Positions 2,543 to 44,506 of a DNA stretch of 64,000 nt are shown one piece after another. The position numbers and the translations under genes were made by a program. Numbering within the stretch: the stretch's first letter is position 1; each line of letters begins with the position of its first letter. Source of the DNA: Alphaproteobacteria bacterium (GTDB taxonomy: Bacteria; Pseudomonadota; Alphaproteobacteria; UBA7887); contig CBDCGL010000011.1 of the NCBI GenBank assembly GCA_965216755.1, positions 4,128,001 through 4,192,000 on the forward strand. The letters run 5' to 3'. Below the pieces are notes generated by a model. That model saw nothing but the letters and a program-made list of their open reading frames with translations, made no database searches and was not told the DNA's origin.

Positions 2543-4243
2543 CTACTGTAGCGCGAAGCCGATGATAATGCCGCCCTTGCGGCTATCCTTCAGCCATGGC
2601 GCGCCGCCCTCGCCGAAATGAGCCCAGCCGACCCAGCCGCCGAAGCCCGACGGCACGGCAACATACTGGGTACCGTCGACCGTGTAGGTGGACGGACTGC
2701 CGAAGATGCCCGAGCCCGTCTGAAACGACCAGAGCTCTTCGCCGGTGTCCTGATGATAGGCCCGGAACTCACCCTCCGGCGTGCCCGCGAACACCAGGCC
2801 GCCGCGCGTCGACAGCAGGCCGCTGGTAAATGGCGAGCGGTCCTTGACCACCCACTTCTTCTCACCCGTATTGCCGTCGAAGGCGACGAGCTGGCCATGA
2901 CCGGTTTTCCAGCCGATCGTGCCGATGCCCCAATAGGGCTTGCCGATGGTGCGCTCGGGCGGGTTCAGCCCGGCGCCGATCGGCGCGCTCTGGATATCGA
3001 CGCAGATCTCGCGGCTCGGCACGAAGACCCAGCCGGTGTCCGGATTCACGGTCATCGGGTTCCACCACTTGCCGCCCTCCGAGGCCGGGCAGATGTTCTT
3101 GGCCTCGTGGTCGTAGGTCGGAACCTTCTCCATGTTCCAGATCGGCCGGCCCTCGGGCGTGAAGCCGGTGGCCCAATTCACGAGCGAGATCGGCACGCCG
3201 TATTTGAACTTCCCGTTGGTGCGGTCGATCTTGTAGAGGAAGCCGTTGCGATCCCCATGCAGCCACACTTTCTCGTCTCCGTAGTCGACAAGGATCGGCT
3301 CATTATTGCCATCGTAATCCCAGACATCGGCAGGCGTGTACTGGAAGTAGAACTGAATCTCACCGGTGTCCGCGTTCAGGGCCAGCGTGGAATTGGAGTA
3401 GAGGTTGTCGCCAGGCCGGACGGCGCCGTCCCAATCTGGATTGGGATTGCCAACGCCCCAATATAGCAAATCGAGCTCGGGGTCGTAGGAACCCGTTATC
3501 CAGGTCGAGGCACCGCCATGCATGGCAGCATCCGTCGAGCCCCAGGTATCGTGACCGGGCTCGCCTGGGCCGGGAATCGTATAGGTGCGCCAGACCTGCT
3601 CGCCGGTCTCGGAGTCGAGAGCGTCGATATAAAGGCGCGTCGGATATTCGGCGCCCGACATGCCGACGATGACCTTGCCTTTGACCACCAACGGCGCCAC
3701 CGTCATGGTGATCGCCTGCTCCCAGTCGCCCACCGTGACGTCCCAAACCACTTCGCCGGTCGCCTTGTCGAGGGCGACGACATGGCTATCGGGGGTGGCC
3801 ACATAGACCTTGTCGCCGTAAAGGGCGACGCCGCGATTGCCGATATCGCAGCACATATTGCCGGCAACACCTTCCGGCAACTGGTGAGCATAGCCCCAGA
3901 TCTCGTCGCCGCTTTCCGCATCGAGCGCATAGGTCCGGCCATGAGACGCGGTGGCGTACATGACGCCGTTATGCACCACTGGCGTGGTGTTCTGCGCGTC
4001 GAGCGTGCCGAGCGAGAATATCCATTTCGGCACCAGACTGCCGACATTGTCCGTATTGATCTGTCCCAAAGTGCTGTAGCGGTTGCCCGTGTAGTTGCCG
4101 GGCGCCATCAGCCAATTGTTCGGATCGCCTGCCGCAGAGCGCAGCATCTCATCAGTGACGATCTCCTGGGCCTGGAGAGCAGGCGCAGCCAACAATGCCG
4201 CGCCAGCCAATAACGCGCAAAGCGCACTTTTCGTTGTTCTCAT
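2543..4243 (-). CDS. PQQ-dependent alcohol dehydrogenase (methanol/ethanol family), probably lanthanide-dependent
   Basis: Signal peptide, RYSTLGQIN, vicinal cysteines (MCCD..NRG), SGAE, GNPNP, WDYDGNNE, DRNGFLY and Trp-docking beta-propeller repeats. Confidence 0.9.
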   Translation of the reverse strand: MRTTKSALCALLAGAALLAAPALQAQEIVTDEMLRSAAGDPNNWLMAPGNYTGNRYSTLGQINTDNVGSLVPKWIFSLGTLDAQNTTPVVHNGVMYATASHGRTYALDAESGDEIWGYAHQLPEGVAGNMCCDIGNRGVALYGDKVYVATPDSHVVALDKATGEVVWDVTVGDWEQAITMTVAPLVVKGKVIVGMSGAEYPTRLYIDALDSETGEQVWRTYTIPGPGEPGHDTWGSTDAAMHGGASTWITGSYDPELDLLYWGVGNPNPDWDGAVRPGDNLYSNSTLALNADTGEIQFYFQYTPADVWDYDGNNEPILVDYGDEKVWLHGDRNGFLYKIDRTNGKFKYGVPISLVNWATGFTPEGRPIWNMEKVPTYDHEAKNICPASEGGKWWNPMTVNPDTGWVFVPSREICVDIQSAPIGAGLNPPERTIGKPYWGIGTIGWKTGHGQLVAFDGNTGEKKWVVKDRSPFTSGLLSTRGGLVFAGTPEGEFRAYHQDTGEELWSFQTGSGIFGSPSTYTVDGTQYVAVPSGFGGWVGWAHFGEGGAPWLKDSRKGGIIIGFALQ

Positions 4244-35903: not shown

Positions 35904-37148
35904 TCAAGAGCCGGATCGCGACAAACGATCCATGCGGTCGCGTAAAGGTGGGTGGGCCAAAAGCAACGCCGCATACAGTGGGTCGGGTGTTAGGCTGGTT
36001 AGATTATTGCGATGCAGTTTCACCAGGGCACGCGACAGCGTGGCGCCTGTTCCGAGGCCTGAGGCAAACGCGTCGGCGTCGTATTCGAATGCCCGTCGGA
36101 TATGGGCGTCTATCGGTCTGGTGATTTGCTTGCCGGCAATGTATAGCGCGACAATCGCGATCAGCATCGCATGCGCGCTCGGTGGGCTCAGCGCCAATCC
36201 GGACAAGAACCAGGGATTTATGGAAAGTAACATAACGAATAGTAATAAAATGAGTCGTGCCGCCGCCGTGATCGCGAAATAGGTGATGACATGACGATGG
36301 CGGAGATGGCCAAGTTCATGTGCGACCACGGCTTCCACCTCTGACGCCGTCAATAGTGTCGTCAAGGTATCATTGAGAACAATCTGGCGGTGTGTGCCAA
36401 TGCCCTGGACCCGTGCATTGGCGTGAAGCGAGCGCCCGGACGTCTCGGCGACCAGAACCGTGTCGACGGGGAGTCCGGCGCGTTTGGCGAGATCAAACAG
36501 ACGGCCCGACAATGTCGAATCCATCGGTGTGTAACGCGAGTCGAGCCACGGCGAAATCGCGATCGGATGCAGCCACAACAAAGCAAGGTCACAGATCGTC
36601 CACGCACCCCAAAGCATGATCCACCAATGCGGCCCGCTGGCGTTGATGATCGCTATCGCGACCGCCGCCCCGCACAGATTCAGTGTTCCGCGCACCGTCG
36701 CGCGTTTCAGACGGTCGGCGGCAAATGAGCCCAGGGTCATTCGGTTGAGGCCGAAAGCTTGGCCAATGCCAAATGTTTCCCACATGTGAAGCGGCAGGCG
36801 GAGGAGATAGGTCGCCACCATCATGGTACCGATCACGGCCAATCCCTTGACCAGCGGCGTCAGCGCCAATTCCGACCACGCACCGTCGACCGCGCGAAAG
36901 CCACCGCCCACGGTCCACGCGAGCAGCAAACACGTGTCCAAGACAGCGGTCGCGTGCGTGAGGTGTTGGCGCGCCAGCGTGTATTGTGCGCCCCGTTGGT
37001 GTGCCGTGAGCTGGATGTTTTCACGGAGGATTGCCGGGAGGCGTGCGTGATTGGCGCGCACATGGGCGCTGTTGCGCGCGCCCAACCAGGTGAACGCGCC
37101 ATAGCTGAGGCAAACAATGCCGACGAAGAGGATCCCGAAATTGTTCAT
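35904..37148 (-). CDS. M48 (Ste24-like) membrane zinc metallopeptidase
   Basis: Multiple TM helices; RS.HANA...G.G, AHELGH, EYDADAFA and HPP...R motifs. Confidence 0.88.
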   Translation of the reverse strand: MNNFGILFVGIVCLSYGAFTWLGARNSAHVRANHARLPAILRENIQLTAHQRGAQYTLARQHLTHATAVLDTCLLLAWTVGGGFRAVDGAWSELALTPLVKGLAVIGTMMVATYLLRLPLHMWETFGIGQAFGLNRMTLGSFAADRLKRATVRGTLNLCGAAVAIAIINASGPHWWIMLWGAWTICDLALLWLHPIAISPWLDSRYTPMDSTLSGRLFDLAKRAGLPVDTVLVAETSGRSLHANARVQGIGTHRQIVLNDTLTTLLTASEVEAVVAHELGHLRHRHVITYFAITAAARLILLLFVMLLSINPWFLSGLALSPPSAHAMLIAIVALYIAGKQITRPIDAHIRRAFEYDADAFASGLGTGATLSRALVKLHRNNLTSLTPDPLYAALLLAHPPLRDRMDRLSRSGS

Positions 37149-37433
37149 CGTCGCAGCGGCGTCCTTCGGCGACTGAGACAGCGCGAATCCGCCCCAGTCT
37201 ATATCCGTTCTAATTATAAGGGCTTTGAATATTGGTCATTGATTGCATCTGCTACAGCAAATTAGTAACAAACGAAACTAGTTCGCAGAGCTTGAGGACC
37301 GGATTTGCCCGGGCGGGATGGCGTCAACCGCTGTGTCCAGATGGGTCGTTCACACTCATGACGGCACTCGCCACCTCAAGCTCAAGCCGAGCACGGTCCC
37401 GCACCTTATCGCGGGAGATAGAGGAGATAAGCC

Positions 37434-37508
37434 ATGAAATGGGTTGATCCTGCCTATTGTGATTTGCGGTTGGGCTTTGAAGTCACCGCATATGTCTACG
37501 TTCGTTAG
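37434..37508 (+). CDS. pqqA: PQQ precursor peptide (24 aa: MKWVDPAYCDLRLGFEVTAYVYVR)
   Basis: W..P.Y.DLRLGFE-x3-Y signature; GAGGAG RBS; lies upstream of pqqD/pqqE. Too short for the ORF track. Confidence 0.93.
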   Translation: MKWVDPAYCDLRLGFEVTAYVYVR

Positions 37509-37519
37509 TAGGCAAATTA

Positions 37520-37544
37520 GGGGGGACGTGTCATGCGTCCCCCC
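37520..37544 (+). terminator. Stem-loop after pqqA (attenuator or transcript stabiliser)
   Basis: GGGGGGACG-tgtcatg-CGTCCCCCC, starting 11 nt after the pqqA stop. Confidence 0.6.
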
Positions 37545-37586
37545 GTTTGCTTAACGTGGTGCATGATGGTGATGAAGGCGGCGCGC

Positions 37587-37871
37587 ATGGCTGATCCTGA
37601 CAAGCTGACACGGCTCGATCACATCGAGATTGATCCCATGTATCTGTTTCGATGGGAAGAATCGCAACAAGCACACGTGCTGCTTTATCCCGAAGGTATC
37701 GTCAAACTCAATCAAACCGCCGGGGAGATCCTGAAGCGCTGTACCGGCCAGAAGTCGGTTGGTGAAATCATCGACGAGTTGGAAGAGGTATTCGTCGATG
37801 GCGATGTTGCCTCTGGCGTACTGAAGTTCTTGGAGGCGTCCAATGCCAAAGGCTGGATCAGACGCAAGTGA
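37587..37871 (+). CDS. pqqD: PqqA-binding chaperone (RRE domain)
   Basis: FRWE..Q.AHVLLYPEG.VKLN.TAGEILKRC.G and FLE....KGWI motifs. Confidence 0.92.
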   Translation: MADPDKLTRLDHIEIDPMYLFRWEESQQAHVLLYPEGIVKLNQTAGEILKRCTGQKSVGEIIDELEEVFVDGDVASGVLKFLEASNAKGWIRRK

Positions 37872-39000
37872 AGTTGGTCTCGACGGGCTCGGTAAACCGC
37901 TTTGGTTATGCCTTGAGCTGACCTATCGGTGCCCGCTGAAATGCCCGTGGTGCAACAACCCGGTCGATTTTGACGAGTACCGCGACGAACTTGACACCGA
38001 TGAGTGGAAGCGCGTGTTGCGCGAAGGGCGGGCATTGGGGTCGCTGCAACTGGGCTTTACCGGCGGTGAACCCGCCATGCGCGATGATCTGGAGGAACTG
38101 GTCGCGGAAGCGGAGTCTCTAGGGTATTACACCAATCTCATCACTTCGGGTATCGGGCTCAGCGCCGAACGGCTACAGGACCTGAAGAACTGCGGCCTGC
38201 ATCAAATCCAACTCAGTCTGCAATCGTCGCGGCGGGATATCACCGACGCCTTGGTCGGCGCGCGCGCCTTTGACAAGAAAATAGAGATCGCCGAGGCGAT
38301 CAAGGCGGCGGGGTTCCCGATGGTCCTCAACGTTCCGGTATGCCGCCAGAATATTGGCGACACCGCGGACATTTTGACGTTGGCCGAGCGCATCGGCGTC
38401 GACTATCTCGAATTTGCCAATATTCAGTATTACAACTGGGCGCTGCTCAATCGGAGTGAACTGTTGCCGAACCGCGCGGAACTGGAATCGGCGGAAGCTG
38501 CCGTGAACGAAGCCCGCGATCGGCTTGGAGATCGGATGACGATCTACTTCGTTATCCCCGACTACTATGATGGCCGCCCAAAGGCGTGCATGAACGGGTG
38601 GGGCAGCATTCATTTGACGATTGCACCGGACGGCACCGCCCTGCCATGCCAAGAAGCACGGGTCATTCCGGGCATGAATTACCCGTCGGTTCGCGACCAG
38701 GGCTTGGCTGAGATTTGGCACGATTCTTTGGCATTCAACAGATTTCGCGGCGACGCGTGGATGACCGAACCATGTCGCGGATGCAATGAAAAGGCCAAGG
38801 ATTTTGGCGGTTGTCGGTGCCAGGCATTCCTGTTAACGGGCGACCCGGCGAACACCGATCCGGCGTGCGCCAAGTCGCCGCAACATGACTTGATCGAGGC
38901 TGCCATTGCCGATGCCGCGAAGCCACGACCGTTTCGCCTGCCGTTGGTCCGGCGCCATGCGAGCGCGGTGACCACGGCATTTGCTGGCAATGCAGTATGA
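37843..39000 (+). CDS. pqqE: PqqA peptide cyclase, radical SAM/SPASM
   Basis: PLWL..ELTYRCPLKCPWC.NP, YYTNLITSG, QYY.WA..NR, PDYY..RPKACMNGWG and DFGGCRCQA motifs. Confidence 0.95.
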   Translation: MPKAGSDASEVGLDGLGKPLWLCLELTYRCPLKCPWCNNPVDFDEYRDELDTDEWKRVLREGRALGSLQLGFTGGEPAMRDDLEELVAEAESLGYYTNLITSGIGLSAERLQDLKNCGLHQIQLSLQSSRRDITDALVGARAFDKKIEIAEAIKAAGFPMVLNVPVCRQNIGDTADILTLAERIGVDYLEFANIQYYNWALLNRSELLPNRAELESAEAAVNEARDRLGDRMTIYFVIPDYYDGRPKACMNGWGSIHLTIAPDGTALPCQEARVIPGMNYPSVRDQGLAEIWHDSLAFNRFRGDAWMTEPCRGCNEKAKDFGGCRCQAFLLTGDPANTDPACAKSPQHDLIEAAIADAAKPRPFRLPLVRRHASAVTTAFAGNAV

Positions 39001-39104
39001 AGACGCCCCTGGACACGCCCGCTGGCACGATCATCTCCGGCGTCGCCTTAACTGTGATTCTAATCATGCTGGTGCGGCTGATCGTGCAAGTCACGGGTGG
39101 ATGA
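38997..39104 (+). CDS. Small single-TM protein (35 aa), resembling the first helix of short PuuD-like proteins
   Basis: Manual translation: MKTPLDTPAGTIISGVALTVILIMLVRLIVQVTGG; its ATG overlaps the pqqE stop (ATGA). Confidence 0.65.
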   Translation: MKTPLDTPAGTIISGVALTVILIMLVRLIVQVTGG

Positions 39105-39142
39105 GGTATCGCTGATTCCAGGCTCAAAAGGATGACGTAGGC

Positions 39143-39652
39143 GTGGAAACGGCCATCATTGACTCCGTTTTGCGTTGGATACATTTCCTCGCAGGGATTA
39201 TCTGGATTGGCCACAACTACGCCGGCATGGTGTTAGTGCCGCGATTTCGCCCCTACGATCCGGCTCAAGACGCGGCCGAAGTGTTGACATCGTCTTACAT
39301 GGGGCGGCAATCACGTGAACACGCCGTTTTTCGCTACAGCGCCATCGTCACTTGGGGCGCAGGGGTCGCGCTGCTGTGGCAACAAGAGCGACTGGTCGAC
39401 GCGCTCATGCTCAGGGCTTATGACGCGCCCATCGGCGTTGGCACTTGGATCGGAACGATTATGTTGCTCAATCTGTGGCTAGTGATGTGGCCACATCAAA
39501 AGAAGGTGCTCGGGTTTGTGCCGGCGCCGGTCGAAGAACGCGTTCGTTGCTCGCGTGTGACTTTTCTCTCCGCACGAATAAACAGTATGCTATCGATTCC
39601 CTTGTTGTTTTTGATGGCAGCCAGCGCACACGCGCCGAATTTGTTTAGCTGA
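39143..39652 (+). CDS. PuuD/DUF989-like (urate oxidase N-terminal) integral membrane protein, without a cytochrome c domain
   Basis: LRWIHFLAGIIWIG, IGVG.WIG.IM..N.W...WP.QKKVLG and R.N.MLSIP motifs. Confidence 0.7.
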   Translation: METAIIDSVLRWIHFLAGIIWIGHNYAGMVLVPRFRPYDPAQDAAEVLTSSYMGRQSREHAVFRYSAIVTWGAGVALLWQQERLVDALMLRAYDAPIGVGTWIGTIMLLNLWLVMWPHQKKVLGFVPAPVEERVRCSRVTFLSARINSMLSIPLLFLMAASAHAPNLFS

Positions 39653-39744
39653 CAGCGATGATGGAAGATGCAAAGACGCGGCTGACACAACGAAACTGCG
39701 CCCACGATATGTCCGCGTCAATGGGTCCAAAGCGGCCACACGGC

Positions 39745-40824
39745 GTGTCGTCAGTCTATAACTTCGCGGCTGGCCCGACGATGATGCCGCATCAGGTGCT
39801 GGCGCGGGCACGCGACGAACTACTGAATTGGCACGGCACCGGTATGTCGGTTTGGGAATTGCCGTTCACCGGAGCGCCGTTTCGCCACCTGGCGGCCGTG
39901 GCACGGCAGCGCCTTCGTGAACTTCTCGATGTGCCTGAGAATTATCGCATTCTGTTTATGCATGGTGGTGCGTCGGCACAATTTTCGTTGGTGCCATTGA
40001 ACTTGGCGCGCGACGCACCGGTCGACTATGTCGAAACCGGTCATTGGGCGCGGAAGGCGATTCGTGAAGGCCGACGTTATGCCCATGTCAACGTTGTCGC
40101 GAGCAACGCTGGCCAAGGGTTCACGTGCATGCCTGCGCCTGAGACTTGGCAACTGACAAAGGGTGCGGCTTATTGCCACGTCACCACCAACGAAACGGCA
40201 AATGGCCTCCAGTTTCATCACACGCTTGATGCCGGCAGCACGCCCCTGGTGGCTGATGCGACGTCCGATTTCTTGGCGCGACCACTCGATGTTGGGAAAT
40301 TCGGGCTTGTCTACGCCGGGGCGCAAAAGAATATCGGCCCCGCCGGGCTGACCATTGTCATCGTCCATCGCGACCTGCTTGGAGCGGCACGTGCCGAAAC
40401 ACCGACAGTGCTCAATTATCAAGTTCAGGCCGACAGCGATTGTATGGTCAATACGCCGTTGACATACGCGATATATTTGGCGGGACTGGTGTTTGCGTGG
40501 CTGGCTGAGCAAGGCGGTGTAACGGCGATGGCGACGATCAATCGTCGGAAGAGTGCGCGCCTCTATGCGGCTATCGACAGCACGGCTTTCTACCAGTGCC
40601 CCAATGCCCCGGCGGACCGATCGCACATGAATGTTTGCTTCGGGCTGGCCGACCAACAGCTGGAAGGCCGGTTTTTGGCCGAAGCCGAGACAGAGGGGTT
40701 GTGCAATCTAAAGGGCCATACCGCGGTCGGTGGTATCCGCGCCAGCCTCTACAACGCGATGCCGGAAGCGGGCGTCAAGGCGCTGATGGATTTTATGGTC
40801 GAGTTCGAACGCCGGTACGGTTGA
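39745..40824 (+). CDS. Phosphoserine aminotransferase (SerC) paralogue, class V PLP enzyme with an altered substrate pocket
   Basis: Collinear with E. coli-type SerC (YNFAAGP, NET, YAGAQKNIGPAG, RASLYNA), but SHR is replaced by PFT and GHR by GHT. Confidence 0.85.
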   Translation: MSSVYNFAAGPTMMPHQVLARARDELLNWHGTGMSVWELPFTGAPFRHLAAVARQRLRELLDVPENYRILFMHGGASAQFSLVPLNLARDAPVDYVETGHWARKAIREGRRYAHVNVVASNAGQGFTCMPAPETWQLTKGAAYCHVTTNETANGLQFHHTLDAGSTPLVADATSDFLARPLDVGKFGLVYAGAQKNIGPAGLTIVIVHRDLLGAARAETPTVLNYQVQADSDCMVNTPLTYAIYLAGLVFAWLAEQGGVTAMATINRRKSARLYAAIDSTAFYQCPNAPADRSHMNVCFGLADQQLEGRFLAEAETEGLCNLKGHTAVGGIRASLYNAMPEAGVKALMDFMVEFERRYG

Positions 40825-40941
40825 CGGCCGCGGCCTGATATCTACGGCCCGCCTCCGCCTCATTAGCTACAACGAATTTAGGGAATTGTAATCTTCTCGA
40901 TGTATGCCGGTTCCTGGCCCTAAAAGCATCAGGAGCTGGCT

Positions 40942-41877
40942 GTGATTACTGAACGTATTGACCACATCACCCGCATTCCCCAGGACTATAAGTCAGCTTG
41001 TCCGCCGTGCCCCAAAAGCGTCAAGATCGAGCTAACAGCTCGTTGTGACTTCAAGTGTTTCTTTTGTGCCACCGGCGCCAAACTGCGAAAAACCGGCGAT
41101 ATGGATTGGGACTTGCTGCGCCGATTGCTGACGGAAATGCGTGACGCCGGCGTCGAAGAGATCGGCTTGTTCTACCTCGGTGAGTCGTTTCTCTACAGCA
41201 AGCTTCCCGACGCGATCGCTTACGCGCGCAAGCTTGGCTACCCATACATCTTCCTGACGACCAACGGCAGGCTCGCAAAACCCGAGCGGGTCCGCGCCTG
41301 TATGGCGGCCGGCCTCGACAGCCTCAAATTTTCGTTTAATTGGGCGGACCAGGCCCAATGCAAAGACATCACCCGGGTCGACGCCTTCGAGACCGTTGTT
41401 GCCAACATCAAAGCTGCGCGAGAGGTCCGCGACGACGTTGAAAAGGCGAGCGGCCATCGCTGCGGTCTGTACGCCTCGTCGATCCAATATGACGGCGCGC
41501 AACAAGAGCGCATGGCGCGGGCCGTGCAAGAGATCGAGCCTTACGTCGATGAACATTATTGGTTGCCGCTCTACGGCCAAGCTGGATTGACGGCGGGCGC
41601 CAACGGCACGACTCCCGTGGCCGGCAATGTCGGTCGGGTCGGTGCCTTGCGTGATCCGCTGCCGTGTTGGGCGGTGTTCACCGAAGGTCACATCACCTTT
41701 GACGGCCATTTGTCAGCATGTTGTTTCGACCATGATGGGCGGTTCAACATGGGCGATCTCAACACCATGTCTTTTATGGAGGCGTGGCATAGCGGAACAT
41801 TCCAAGCGCTCCGAGAGGCCAATTTGGCGCAGGATGTCACCGGCACGCCATGCGAGCAGTGCATCGCCTACGGCTAA
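40942..41877 (+). CDS. Radical SAM protein with C-terminal SPASM/twitch domain, function unknown
   Basis: IELTARCDFKCFFC, GES, TTNG, and C-terminal LPCW...ACCFD...GDL...W...PCEQC; AGGAG RBS. Confidence 0.88.
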   Translation: MITERIDHITRIPQDYKSACPPCPKSVKIELTARCDFKCFFCATGAKLRKTGDMDWDLLRRLLTEMRDAGVEEIGLFYLGESFLYSKLPDAIAYARKLGYPYIFLTTNGRLAKPERVRACMAAGLDSLKFSFNWADQAQCKDITRVDAFETVVANIKAAREVRDDVEKASGHRCGLYASSIQYDGAQQERMARAVQEIEPYVDEHYWLPLYGQAGLTAGANGTTPVAGNVGRVGALRDPLPCWAVFTEGHITFDGHLSACCFDHDGRFNMGDLNTMSFMEAWHSGTFQALREANLAQDVTGTPCEQCIAYG

Positions 41878-42076
41878 TCACCGTATAGCGTAAGACGCGC
41901 ACTATAAAGCGCGCTAAACCACATGTTGTGTCGCCGCACGGCGACGCGTACTCTTTCGCCCGCAGTTGAACTGTCGGCGCTGCGCCAAGGTGCCGCATCC
42001 GGCGGGTGGGCCGGGCCACCGCAGGCATGTGCGCATGCTGTCGTTGCCAGCGTTGTCTACGCGCGGAGCAATGGTC

Positions 42077-42592
42077 ATGACGGCACCGGAAAAGTATTCC
42101 AAAGGTGTGCGGTTTTTGCATTGGCTGATGGCAGCCGTCCTGGTTGGTTCGGTCTATACCGGCTGGCAGTTGGAAGAGCCGGGCAACCGGGTGACGTCGC
42201 TTCATTTCGGGCTCGGGATTTCGATCGCGTTGCTCATCCTATTGCGTATTTGGGCGCGCCTCGGTTCGACCGTACCGCCGTTCCCTGATGGGCTCGCGGC
42301 ATGGGAGGCGCGGGTGGCGCACGCCGCACATATGGCCCTCTATGGCACCTTGGTGATGATGCCTGCGCTTGGTTTTTTGGCAGCGACCACGCGTGCGGAG
42401 GGCGCCACCCTTTGGGGGCTACCGTTGCCGTCCGTACTGGGGCGCGATAAGGTGCTCCACGAGGCCATCGCTGGGGCCCATGGCTTGGTTGCCAACATTT
42501 TGATTTTGGTCACGCTGCTGCATATTGCCGGTGCCCTAAAGCATCGCCTGTTTGATAAACCGGAGAACAACGTGCTGCCGCGGATTCTTTAA
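42077..42592 (+). CDS. Cytochrome b561 (YceJ/CybB-like)
   Basis: RFLHWLMA, LHFGLG, AAHMALY and LLHIAGALKH heme-ligand pattern. Confidence 0.85.
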   Translation: MTAPEKYSKGVRFLHWLMAAVLVGSVYTGWQLEEPGNRVTSLHFGLGISIALLILLRIWARLGSTVPPFPDGLAAWEARVAHAAHMALYGTLVMMPALGFLAATTRAEGATLWGLPLPSVLGRDKVLHEAIAGAHGLVANILILVTLLHIAGALKHRLFDKPENNVLPRIL

Positions 42593-42688: not shown

Positions 42689-44506
42689 TTATAACTCTTC
42701 GACGATAAATCGATAGATGCTGTCTTGGCCGTTGATCCGTTGTTCGATCTCGGCGTCGGTGTGGGCAGCGGCCGCATGCATCAACGCCGTGTGGCGGCGC
42801 CAATCAAGGATGTTCATGTCGGTCGGCAGGGGTGGCGAAATGACGCGATCATGCGGACCGGGCCGCGCGCCGGCTTGGCGGCTCATCATCATGCTGCGTA
42901 CGATCACGTTGGCCAAGTTGGGTGCGCGAGGTAAGGCCGCAAAAGGTGAGCACATGGCGCGCGCGATGTGCCAACGTCCAGGTAAGCTGTCATAAGTAAC
43001 CTGCGGTCTGTTCAATTTCGGGATAGGCAGGTCGACGACAATGTTGGGACCCGTTTTGAGGCGATGCATGGTCGCGAGCGGGACGTTGTCTGCCAAACTG
43101 CCGTCAACAAGCACGTCGCCTTCGTCGGTCAGAAAGGGAGGCAGAAGCGCTGGAATTGAGCCGGTCGCACGAACCGCTTGCCACACCAATCCGTGCCGAT
43201 GACAACGTTCCTGGCCGGTGGCGAGGTCGGTCGACAGAGCGAAGAATGGGATGGCAAGGTCTTCGATACAGGTGTTGCCATAGTGGGCATTGAGAGCGCG
43301 GTCGAAATAGGTGTGATCAAGGAGGCTGTATCTAGGGATCGTGACATGCTGCAATGCGCCGCGTGTGATGAAAATATCGTGCGTGCGCGCGTCGATTTCT
43401 TGGGGCGTCATCTGAGCAGCGAACGCCGCCGCCATGGCGCCGCCACCACTGGTTCCACCATAGAAGTCAAACCGGATGTCACGGTCATAGAAAGCCTTAT
43501 AGACGCCGATGTGCGCGGCGCAAAATGCACCGCCGCCGCCGGCCACAAAACCCGCCGCTCTACCCGTCAGAAAACGTGCGAGGCGGGTGTAGTCATCCGT
43601 CGCGTCAAGGCCGACATGATGGTGCATGACGACTGCGCGCTGCTTCAGCCAATCCGATGTCCCCGGATATAGCGGCGCTGCTTGATCATGAACCAGGACT
43701 AGTCGTGTGCGTTCGCGGCCGTGCAACGCCAGCGCCATTTGCTCCAATTCGGTCAACACAATTTGCGACCCGACACGGGCCACCAGCAGCAGCTCATCGG
43801 CCTGACGGATGTATTTCTGTGTCCACGCTGGCGAATTTGGGTCCGTCCAGAACACAAGGTGGTCAGTGTCTCGGCCTAAAGCCTCTAGCCAAAGTGCCGC
43901 GTCGAGGGAGTCCGGCGAAAGGCCGCGGCTGAATTCGCGGTCCGGCGTATTGATATCAATATCGCGTAGCGTGCCGTGCCGTCGCAACGCCTTGACGAGT
44001 CGGTTCTTGAAGGTATCGGGAATGGGGCCGCTGCCGGCTTGCACAATGGCGAGCGTGTGCGAGGGCGCGAACGATGCTTCTTGTCCCAGCCGGTCCGAGG
44101 TCTTGACCAGTCGCTCGGACAAGAAACGTATGATGGCGTCTTTAATGTCCGGCACGTCGTGCGCGACTTGCTCAAAATCGTCGCGCGTCAGGGCCAACAC
44201 CACACTGTCGCGTTTGGCCGTGACTTGGGCGCTGCGCGGTGTGCCTGAGAAAAAGCCGATTTCGCCGATGGGTTGGCCGCGGCCAATCTCGATCCCCATC
44301 GGTGCGTCACTGTCGAAGCTCACGTCAAACAGACCGCTGGCGACCAAATACAGCGTCTCGGCGCTTTCGCCCTTCTGAATTAAAATATCGCCGCGCGCAA
44401 TGCGGCGCGTTTGCAAACGCGCGGCGAGCCGGTCGCGGATGTCCGCGGTGAGACGATCAAAGGCCTCGATGGCGGATAGTGGATCAGGCGTTGGCATAGG
44501 GACCAC
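42689..44506 (-). CDS. Cyclic nucleotide-binding patatin-like phospholipase (NTE-like)
   Basis: cNMP domain (GEIGF....PRSA.V) and patatin motifs GGGA, GTSGG and DGS. Confidence 0.85.
   Translation of the reverse strand: MVPMPTPDPLSAIEAFDRLTADIRDRLAARLQTRRIARGDILIQKGESAETLYLVASGLFDVSFDSDAPMGIEIGRGQPIGEIGFFSGTPRSAQVTAKRDSVVLALTRDDFEQVAHDVPDIKDAIIRFLSERLVKTSDRLGQEASFAPSHTLAIVQAGSGPIPDTFKNRLVKALRRHGTLRDIDINTPDREFSRGLSPDSLDAALWLEALGRDTDHLVFWTDPNSPAWTQKYIRQADELLLVARVGSQIVLTELEQMALALHGRERTRLVLVHDQAAPLYPGTSDWLKQRAVVMHHHVGLDATDDYTRLARFLTGRAAGFVAGGGGAFCAAHIGVYKAFYDRDIRFDFYGGTSGGGAMAAAFAAQMTPQEIDARTHDIFITRGALQHVTIPRYSLLDHTYFDRALNAHYGNTCIEDLAIPFFALSTDLATGQERCHRHGLVWQAVRATGSIPALLPPFLTDEGDVLVDGSLADNVPLATMHRLKTGPNIVVDLPIPKLNRPQVTYDSLPGRWHIARAMCSPFAALPRAPNLANVIVRSMMMSRQAGARPGPHDRVISPPLPTDMNILDWRRHTALMHAAAAHTDAEIEQRINGQDSIYRFIVEEL

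Follow-up and report, generated by a model that had tools for sequence, protein, structure and literature searches.

A second pqqADE cassette with an M48 protease, a short DUF989 membrane protein and a SerC-type enzyme in an alphaproteobacterium with denitrification genes

The window studied here is a stretch of 64,000 nucleotides from an alphaproteobacterium of the GTDB order-level lineage UBA7887 (assembly GCA_965216755.1, contig CBDCGL010000011.1). It corresponds to G000:C11:4128001-4192000, where G000 denotes the host genome and C11 the contig; coordinates without prefix refer to the window. Its central part harbours a variant set of the pyrroloquinoline quinone (PQQ) genes pqqA, pqqD and pqqE, together with genes for an M48 protease, a single-helix micro-protein, a short DUF989 membrane protein and a SerC-type pyridoxal 5'-phosphate (PLP) enzyme (Table 1). 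The original prediction, made from the sequence of this region, had described a pqqADE locus in which the O2-dependent enzymes PqqB and PqqC are missing and had proposed that an altered aminotransferase, a second radical S-adenosylmethionine (SAM) enzyme and membrane redox proteins take their place. Genes were assigned from the listing of open reading frames (ORFs) and from family-profile scans with Pfam and the curated cut-offs of NCBIfam/TIGRFAM, and every gene that had been named was found at its position. The real conserved cassette spans 35904-40824, from the M48 gene through the gene of the SerC-type enzyme.

Table 1. Features of the cassette and of the two genes that follow it in the window.
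Feature	Position	Strand	Basis
M48 protease, Ste24-like, 414 aa	35904..37148	-	PF16491 119.3 bits (cut-off 27), PF01435 84.7 (cut-off 20.3); divergent from pqqA
Variant pqqA, 24 aa	37434..37508	+	PF08042 39.2 bits (cut-off 21.1), TIGR02107 30.6 (cut-off 20)
Hairpin after pqqA	37509..37553, inner stem 37520-37544	+	folding energy and terminator scan; followed by GTTTGCTT
Variant pqqD, peptide chaperone	37533..37871	+	TIGR03859 88.1 bits (cut-off 46)
Variant pqqE, radical SAM/SPASM, 385 aa	37843..39000	+	TIGR02109 488.4 bits (cut-off 381.35); PF04055 and PF13186
Single-helix micro-protein, 35 aa	38997..39104	+	ORF coupled to pqqE, ATGA overlap
Short DUF989/PuuD-N-like membrane protein, 169 aa	39143..39652	+	partial PF06181 Urate_ox_N match
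SerC-type class-V PLP enzyme	39658..40824	+	NF003764 480.6 bits (cut-off 253)
Radical SAM/SPASM protein, 311 aa; neighbour, not core	40942..41877	+	no NCBIfam model above cut-off
Cytochrome b561; neighbour, not member	41966..42592	+	PF01292 75 bits

Searching the genome for the missing genes reveals a complete canonical pqqA-B-C-D-E operon on the same contig, 2 Mb away (C11:2119840-2123135), with scores of 401 bits for PqqB, 357 bits for PqqC and 558 bits for PqqE. Neither pqqB nor pqqC is present at the locus or anywhere else in the 64-kb window, as had been stated, and the only matches above cut-off in the genome (C11:2119992-2121706) belong to the distant operon. The caveat that pqqBC could lie elsewhere was thus well placed. 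Therefore the window set represents a second, paralogous pqqADE and not a PQQ system devoid of pqqBC. A third, orphan pqqA of the canonical alphaproteobacterial type lies distant from both loci (G000:C11:2790301-2790357). The host encodes 12 PQQ-dehydrogenase homologues, among them one within the window (2549-4159, minus strand) and another about 25 kb past its end (C11:4216670-4218451).

The scores of PqqA, PqqD and PqqE of the window all lie above the curated equivalog thresholds for PQQ synthesis. The small peptide contains the sequence EVTAY and thereby the E16-x3-Y20 motif, with a second tyrosine at +2, and it is near-invariant in the nine cassette loci compared (9/9; M.W[VI][DN]P.[YF][CY]DLRLGFEVTAY[VA]Y.R). 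Directly 3' of pqqA lies a strong hairpin (dG -30.3 kcal/mol, z-score -5.64, equalled by 0/200 shuffles), which the terminator scan lists as well; it is probably an attenuator or an mRNA-stabilising stem. Because the TIGR03859 match in PqqD begins only at residue 29-33, the true pqqD start is probably near 37587, which fits the gap of 78 bp between pqqA and pqqD. Both the hairpin and this gap had been noticed before and agree with the calculations. PqqE shares 45% identity with the canonical PqqE of the same genome, and in a maximum-likelihood tree the cassette PqqEs are split from the operon PqqEs with an SH-aLRT support of 95. The cassette PqqAs resemble the canonical PqqA of G444, a genome of another class, and not the alpha-type canonical PqqA of the genomes that carry them. 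Because of this resemblance, and because the SerC-type enzyme is of the E. coli type, the sequences suggest that the cassette originated in bacteria other than Alphaproteobacteria and reached these by transfer.

Two deviations from this scheme were observed in other carriers. In the genus g8 pqqE is followed by a tandem paralogue, which separates it from the micro-protein gene (L149:8699-9793 in G020, L150:9396-10490 in G019, L106 in G021). The paralogue groups with the cassette PqqEs in the above tree, is 50% identical to the window PqqE and reaches 388 bits with TIGR02109, barely over the cut-off; it might modify the same peptide in a further radical SAM reaction. In G391 a degenerate second pqqA-like ORF precedes the cassette pqqA (L144:2270-2341), in which EVTSK replaces EVTAY so that the cross-link tyrosine is gone.

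The SerC-type enzyme of the window is 52-64% identical to bacterial phosphoserine aminotransferases (PSATs), including 52% to two housekeeping SerCs. Since a separate, alpha-type housekeeping SerC is encoded elsewhere in the genome (TIGR01365, 622 bits), the E. coli-type enzyme of the window is an extra copy. We aligned nine cassette copies with the two housekeeping SerCs and checked three further copies by tblastn at the motif sites only. The nine aligned copies all keep the AQKN lysine, the NET and Asp motifs and the arginine of GG.RAS, and AQKN is also found in the three further ones. Thus the family score, the PLP lysine and the carboxylate arginine mark the protein as a SerC relative, but the phosphate-binding His/Arg pairs are missing. 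The S-H-R loop is changed to P-F-T (P-F-S in one copy) in 12/12 cassette SerCs, in agreement with the changed pocket of the original prediction, and the arginine after G-H is kept in only 1/12, the window enzyme having G-H-T instead of G-H-R. In the Arabidopsis enzyme AtPSAT1, according to the sections of PMC6043687 consulted, the phosphate of phosphoserine is held by two His-Arg pairs (H110, R111, H396, R397) and the carboxylate by a later arginine. We infer from motif position that the S-H-R and G-H-R loops correspond to these pairs. Because the residues for phosphate binding are lost while the catalytic and carboxylate-binding ones are kept, the ligand of the cassette enzyme is probably still an alpha-amino or alpha-keto acid, though one without a phosphate group.

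Between pqqE and the SerC gene two membrane proteins are encoded. The start codon of the 35-codon ORF (ATG) and the stop codon of pqqE (TGA) share the sequence ATGA, and an ORF of 30-36 aa with a single helix is present at this place in 12/12 full cassettes (consensus MKLPHDS..GT...G..LT, window version MKTPLDTPAGT). The transmembrane peptide coupled to the pqqE stop, which had been suspected from the window, is therefore a real conserved gene. The possibility that it is all that is left of a second pqqE copy like that of g8 was rejected, as a tblastn search with that protein matches only the two pqqE genes of the genome. G019 encodes the micro-protein and the DUF989 protein as a single in-frame fusion (L150:8776-9399, 207 aa). 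For the pair of the window the predicted complex reaches an ipSAE of 0.73 (best of three controls 0.00), the partner has a pLDDT of at least 85, and at least 98% of the contacts agree between runs. This mark was reached by 116/157 solved complexes versus 2/215 mismatched pairs, which gives a rough guide only, own alignments having been used. The micro-protein is thus predicted to be a small subunit of the DUF989 protein, both forming one membrane module.

The DUF989 protein itself matches PF06181 with 37.6 bits over profile positions 172-244 of 295. Its AlphaFold2 model consists of four long helices (mean pLDDT 79.9), and a fold search with this model against 48,161 chains returned generic helical bundles only, the best Z of 11.9 being below the level meaningful for such bundles. 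Invariant are H14 and the WP.QKK core (W116, P117, Q119-K121); H24, H60 and H118 are kept in 9/9 cassette copies but not in a paralogue of the host. This paralogue, also a short DUF989 protein and 36% identical, is encoded at G000:C11:3710581-3711042 (L024:1486-1983 and L024:2027-2146, minus strand). It is preceded by a similar small ORF, has no pqq context, and its neighbours are without Pfam match; the micro-protein/DUF989 pair may therefore represent a general module. In G039 pqqE and the DUF989 gene are separated by an inserted gene for an acyl-CoA-dehydrogenase-like (ACAD-like) flavoprotein, which is flanked by a full micro-protein gene and a truncated duplicate of 25 aa (L145:7669-8991 and L145:9113-9190).

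The protease combines an N-terminal five-helix domain (PF16491) with an M48 domain containing HExxH (PF01435). The residues of this motif (H277, E278, H281) and E355 are invariant in 7/7 cassette M48s. The M48 gene adjoins the cassette in 9/9 alphaproteobacterial loci with available flank, located downstream and co-oriented in three families, and upstream and divergent in the host family. Judged from this gene content, M48 is a core member of the alphaproteobacterial form, in place of the PyrD-like gene of the second architecture described below.

In 14 genomes belonging to eight families and two classes the core genes follow one another as pqqA-pqqD-pqqE-micro-protein-DUF989-SerC. A search with the window PqqE in the host order (23 genomes) found the variant clade, with 63-72% identity, in the host and in one other genus (4/4 genomes). 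When 401 genomes sampled evenly across the class were searched, the variant PqqE was found in eight genomes of four families, while four other matches at the threshold are ordinary operon copies. All alphaproteobacterial loci with enough flank read pqqA-pqqD-pqqE-(small ORF)-DUF989-serC-M48. A second architecture was recovered by searching with DUF989 in the phylum and then in the second class: in G444, G1011, G864 and G884 the block pqqA-D-E-small ORF-DUF989-serC continues with a DHO_dh (PyrD-like) gene, and M48 is absent. No orthologue of this PyrD-like gene could be identified in alphaproteobacterial carriers. The only match of the host to the G444 protein shares 30% identity (C11:3540872), the gene after the window serC being the radical SAM gene, and the matches of the nine other alphaproteobacterial carriers are only 27-33% identical and probably housekeeping. 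The genes outside the block are wholly different among families (queuosine genes, glycosyltransferases, sugar-acid dehydratases).

Because the order is retained in all these genomes while the flanks differ, the core arrangement is not due to chance. That the genes 3' of pqqE might be unrelated chance neighbours is thus hardly credible for the six or seven core genes, and for these we regard it as refuted; as the original prediction had supposed, the pqqADE genes of this clade are accompanied by those for M48, the PuuD-like protein and the altered SerC. Chance neighbourhood does hold for the radical SAM and cytochrome b561 genes. Orthologues of the second radical SAM protein (52-80% identity) were inspected together with their surroundings in 80 loci. 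Only 2/80 have this gene beside pqqADE, DUF989 and serC, both from the host's own family and apparently on the same contigs as G020:C49 and G021:C263. It occurs in 5/11 cassette carriers, unlinked in G090. A cytochrome b561 gene is adjacent to the radical SAM gene in 0/80 loci and to the cassette in none of the other cassette loci, that is, only in this genome. These counts identify both genes as bystanders. The radical SAM protein (40942-41877), which belongs to a widespread unrelated family, was therefore rejected as a pathway member, and the membership claimed for the cytochrome b561 had to be dropped, too.

Concerning these neighbours, a terminator-like hairpin is located between them (41927-41948), and as the PF01292 match starts at residue 44 of the b561 protein, its true start is probably near 42080. 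The radical SAM family is highly conserved in Alpha-, Beta- and Gammaproteobacteria. Its neighbours elsewhere include a Crp/FNR-type regulator (29/80 loci, often following), MoaB-like and FixG-like proteins, NarK/NarG and another radical SAM gene, and its function may be tied to anaerobic or nitrate respiration. Convergent with the b561 gene, a protein of 605 aa (42689-44506, minus strand) combines a cyclic-nucleotide-binding, an NTE-type P-loop-like and a patatin phospholipase domain.

The original prediction had raised the question whether the hosts are facultative anaerobes or denitrifiers, and judged by their genes most carriers are nitrate or nitrite respirers. Among the 11 carriers tested at first, NarG was found in 4/11, the cd1 nitrite reductase NirS in 8/11 and the copper enzyme NirK in 2/11, with at least one of them in 10/11; of three further carriers, two possess NirS. 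The genome of the window itself encodes NarG (1330 bits) and cd1 nitrite reductase and is, by gene content, capable of denitrification. In contrast, both nitrite reductases are lacking (NirS 0/5, NirK 0/5) in five genomes of the host family that represent four other genera and have a canonical pqqE but no cassette. Within the host family it is therefore suggestive that the cassette tracks nitrite reductase.

What could such a cassette do? The cross-linking of Glu and Tyr by PqqD and PqqE needs no O2, and both PqqB and PqqC need it. Taking the above results together, we regard the cassette as a self-contained second PqqA-processing unit beside the canonical pqqABCDE. An O2-independent route to PQQ is our leading reading of it, held tentatively and with somewhat less than even confidence. 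According to this reading, PqqD and PqqE would join Glu16 to Tyr20 in the dedicated PqqA without O2, and the membrane M48 protease would excise the cross-linked product from the peptide. The DUF989/micro-protein pair, by analogy with PuuD, would oxidise or hydroxylate the ring using water and pass the electrons to the respiratory chain. In the other cassette forms a flavoprotein (PyrD-like or ACAD-like) could help to aromatise the ring, and the PLP enzyme would handle the amino or keto group of a non-phosphorylated amino-acid intermediate. Together these steps would stand in for the O2-consuming chemistry of PqqB and PqqC during nitrate respiration. In a fuller picture, the cassette would be a complete O2-independent finishing line for a PqqA-derived quinone. 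A hitherto unrecognised membrane dehydrogenase of two subunits, the micro-protein and the short DUF989 protein, would take the ring oxygens from water and feed the electrons into the respiratory chain, and the re-tooled SerC would carry out a PLP step new to PQQ chemistry. The product would be either PQQ from a novel route or a novel cofactor for quinoproteins in nitrate respiration. This picture seems rather doubtful to us.

Several observations, collected in this and the following two paragraphs, weigh against an O2-independent route. First, pqqC was found in 14/14 carriers and pqqB in 10/10 tested (G000 and nine others), and so the cassette's independence from the O2-dependent enzymes is not established. 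The idea that these enzymes are missing from genomes with this PqqE clade failed here, the host included. A canonical pqqE was identified in 8/9 other carriers tested and not in G021 (91% complete, 640 contigs). It is thus conceivable, if unlikely, that the cassette is an auxiliary, separately regulated supply which, with a PqqA, PqqD, PqqE and protease of its own, makes cross-linked and excised Glu-Tyr for the canonical O2-dependent PqqB and PqqC, with the membrane pair and the PLP enzyme engaged in trimming, transport or salvage. The retention of pqqB and pqqC would fit well, as would the position of the cassettes of G444, G039 and G1011 some 2-13 kb from canonical pqq genes (in G444 and G039 also near a PQQ dehydrogenase), and the canonical operon of the host has no protease gene, so that M48 could serve it. 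However, such a role leaves unexplained why the DUF989/micro-protein pair and the re-tooled SerC are so strictly conserved (12/12), why other forms contain a flavoprotein (PyrD-like or ACAD-like), and why the cassette is linked to nitrite reductase within the host family.

Second, the association of the cassette with denitrification genes is not uniform. It is statistically weak, because only a small number of carriers and controls could be compared and these are related to one another. G391 (92% complete) lacks NarG, NirS and NirK altogether, G019 possesses NarG only, and in G1011, where of the three only NirS was looked for, it was not found. With the consensus TTGAT-N4-ATCAA of FNR/Dnr-type boxes, no box with up to two mismatches is present in the intergenic regions between M48 and pqqA or between serC and the radical SAM gene. 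The best box-like matches upstream of the nine cassette loci have four mismatches in the window and two to four in the other eight. Looking at the whole window, box-like patterns with up to two mismatches number 33 versus 17.8 expected (0/100 shuffles reach 33), none of them in the cassette intergenic regions.

Third, PQQ retains both alpha-amino nitrogens, and we know of no PQQ route that needs a transaminase. Moreover, the M48 form is without a PyrD-like gene and therefore offers no candidate for desaturating the ring, apart from the ACAD-like insert in G039. A PLP enzyme without a role in PQQ chemistry would be easier to understand if the Glu-Tyr cross-link were matured not to PQQ but to another cofactor or metabolite, such as an alpha-keto derivative formed by transamination, in analogy to the oxidative deamination that occurs when mycofactocin is matured. 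The invariant tail EVTAY[VA]Y.R of the variant PqqA with its second tyrosine, the separate PqqE clade and the tandem PqqE paralogue of g8, hinting at an extra radical step, would agree with this. On the other hand, the variant PqqA is close to the ordinary canonical PqqA of G444, PqqA, PqqD and PqqE pass the equivalog cut-offs for PQQ synthesis, and the cassette is found only in genomes which also make PQQ, often beside PQQ enzymes. We consider a different product distinctly unlikely. It is mainly the PLP step, which lacks a counterpart in known PQQ chemistry, that leads us to keep this explanation and the auxiliary supply next to the O2-independent route.

PQQ enzymes operate without air in denitrifying methylotrophs and alcohol oxidisers, and the cassette is the best genetic candidate for an anaerobic PQQ supply in denitrifiers. 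The present analysis sets its membership to six or seven genes: the radical SAM and cytochrome b561 genes were removed, the micro-protein was added and the M48 variant was revealed. What the original prediction had observed is thereby confirmed, and its interpretation is supported in part. Through this cassette the question of an anaerobic supply is now directly testable. If the O2-independent route holds true, PQQ could be produced anaerobically, and short DUF989 proteins would gain a first function.

Comparing the cassette with known systems, the canonical pqqABCDE(F) shares with it equivalog-level PqqA, PqqD and PqqE, E-x3-Y in the peptide and a hairpin behind its gene. However, the window locus is without pqqB and pqqC, its PqqE forms a separate clade, and its accessory genes have no canonical counterpart. 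Mycofactocin maturation, with the radical SAM enzyme MftC, the peptidase MftE and the deaminating MftD, is similar in that a radical SAM cross-link on a small peptide is followed by proteolytic release and then by amine conversion. It differs in its unrelated peptidase and amine-converting enzymes, and to our knowledge no membrane module is known for it. PSAT/SerC and the cassette enzyme have the PLP lysine, the NET and Asp motifs and the carboxylate arginine in common, but the latter is without the S-H-R His-Arg pair (12/12) and mostly without the arginine of G-H-R.

For PuuD, the sections of PMC4562309 consulted report that urate oxidation by its DUF989 domain, apparently via cytochrome c, does not show the H2O2 signature typical of the O2-dependent uricase, and that short four-helix DUF989 forms lacking the cytochrome are known in other contexts. 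The window protein matches the DUF989 core and its short form resembles these four-helix types. Unlike PuuD, for which an eight-helix DUF989 domain and a CXXCH cytochrome c are diagnostic, it has 169 aa and four helices, no cytochrome c domain, a micro-protein partner and another gene context.

The closest published relative is the pqqAED-puuD-serC-pyrD cluster. The consulted sections of PMC12423496 (Mol Microbiol 2025) describe a second pqqA, pqqD and pqqE next to PuuD-N-like, serC and pyrD-like genes in Hyphomicrobium denitrificans (Hden_0548-0553) and others, co-regulated with denitrification genes, and speculate on O2-independent PQQ synthesis. They also cite work according to which PQQ is not formed anaerobically by Klebsiella pneumoniae or Pseudomonas aeruginosa, two species equipped with no more than the canonical genes. 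The idea of O2-independent PQQ, reached there independently, is thus already in print as an untested speculation (PMC12423496). The terms "M48" and "CAAX" do not occur in the main text of that article, and in its consulted sections no mention of the micro-protein or the SerC pocket change was noticed, no term search having been made for these two. A full-text literature search (pqqADE; DUF989 with PQQ) returned nothing else on the cassette. The window resembles the published cluster in its extra pqqA, pqqD and pqqE, its PuuD-N-like and SerC-like genes and a host with denitrification genes, and the published architecture itself is the one recovered in G444, G1011, G864 and G884. In contrast, the window and all nine alphaproteobacterial loci with a readable flank have M48 and no PyrD-like gene. 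Compared with the published cluster, the M48-bearing alphaproteobacterial variant, the micro-protein partner, the change in the SerC pocket and the link to nitrite reductase within the host family are new here.

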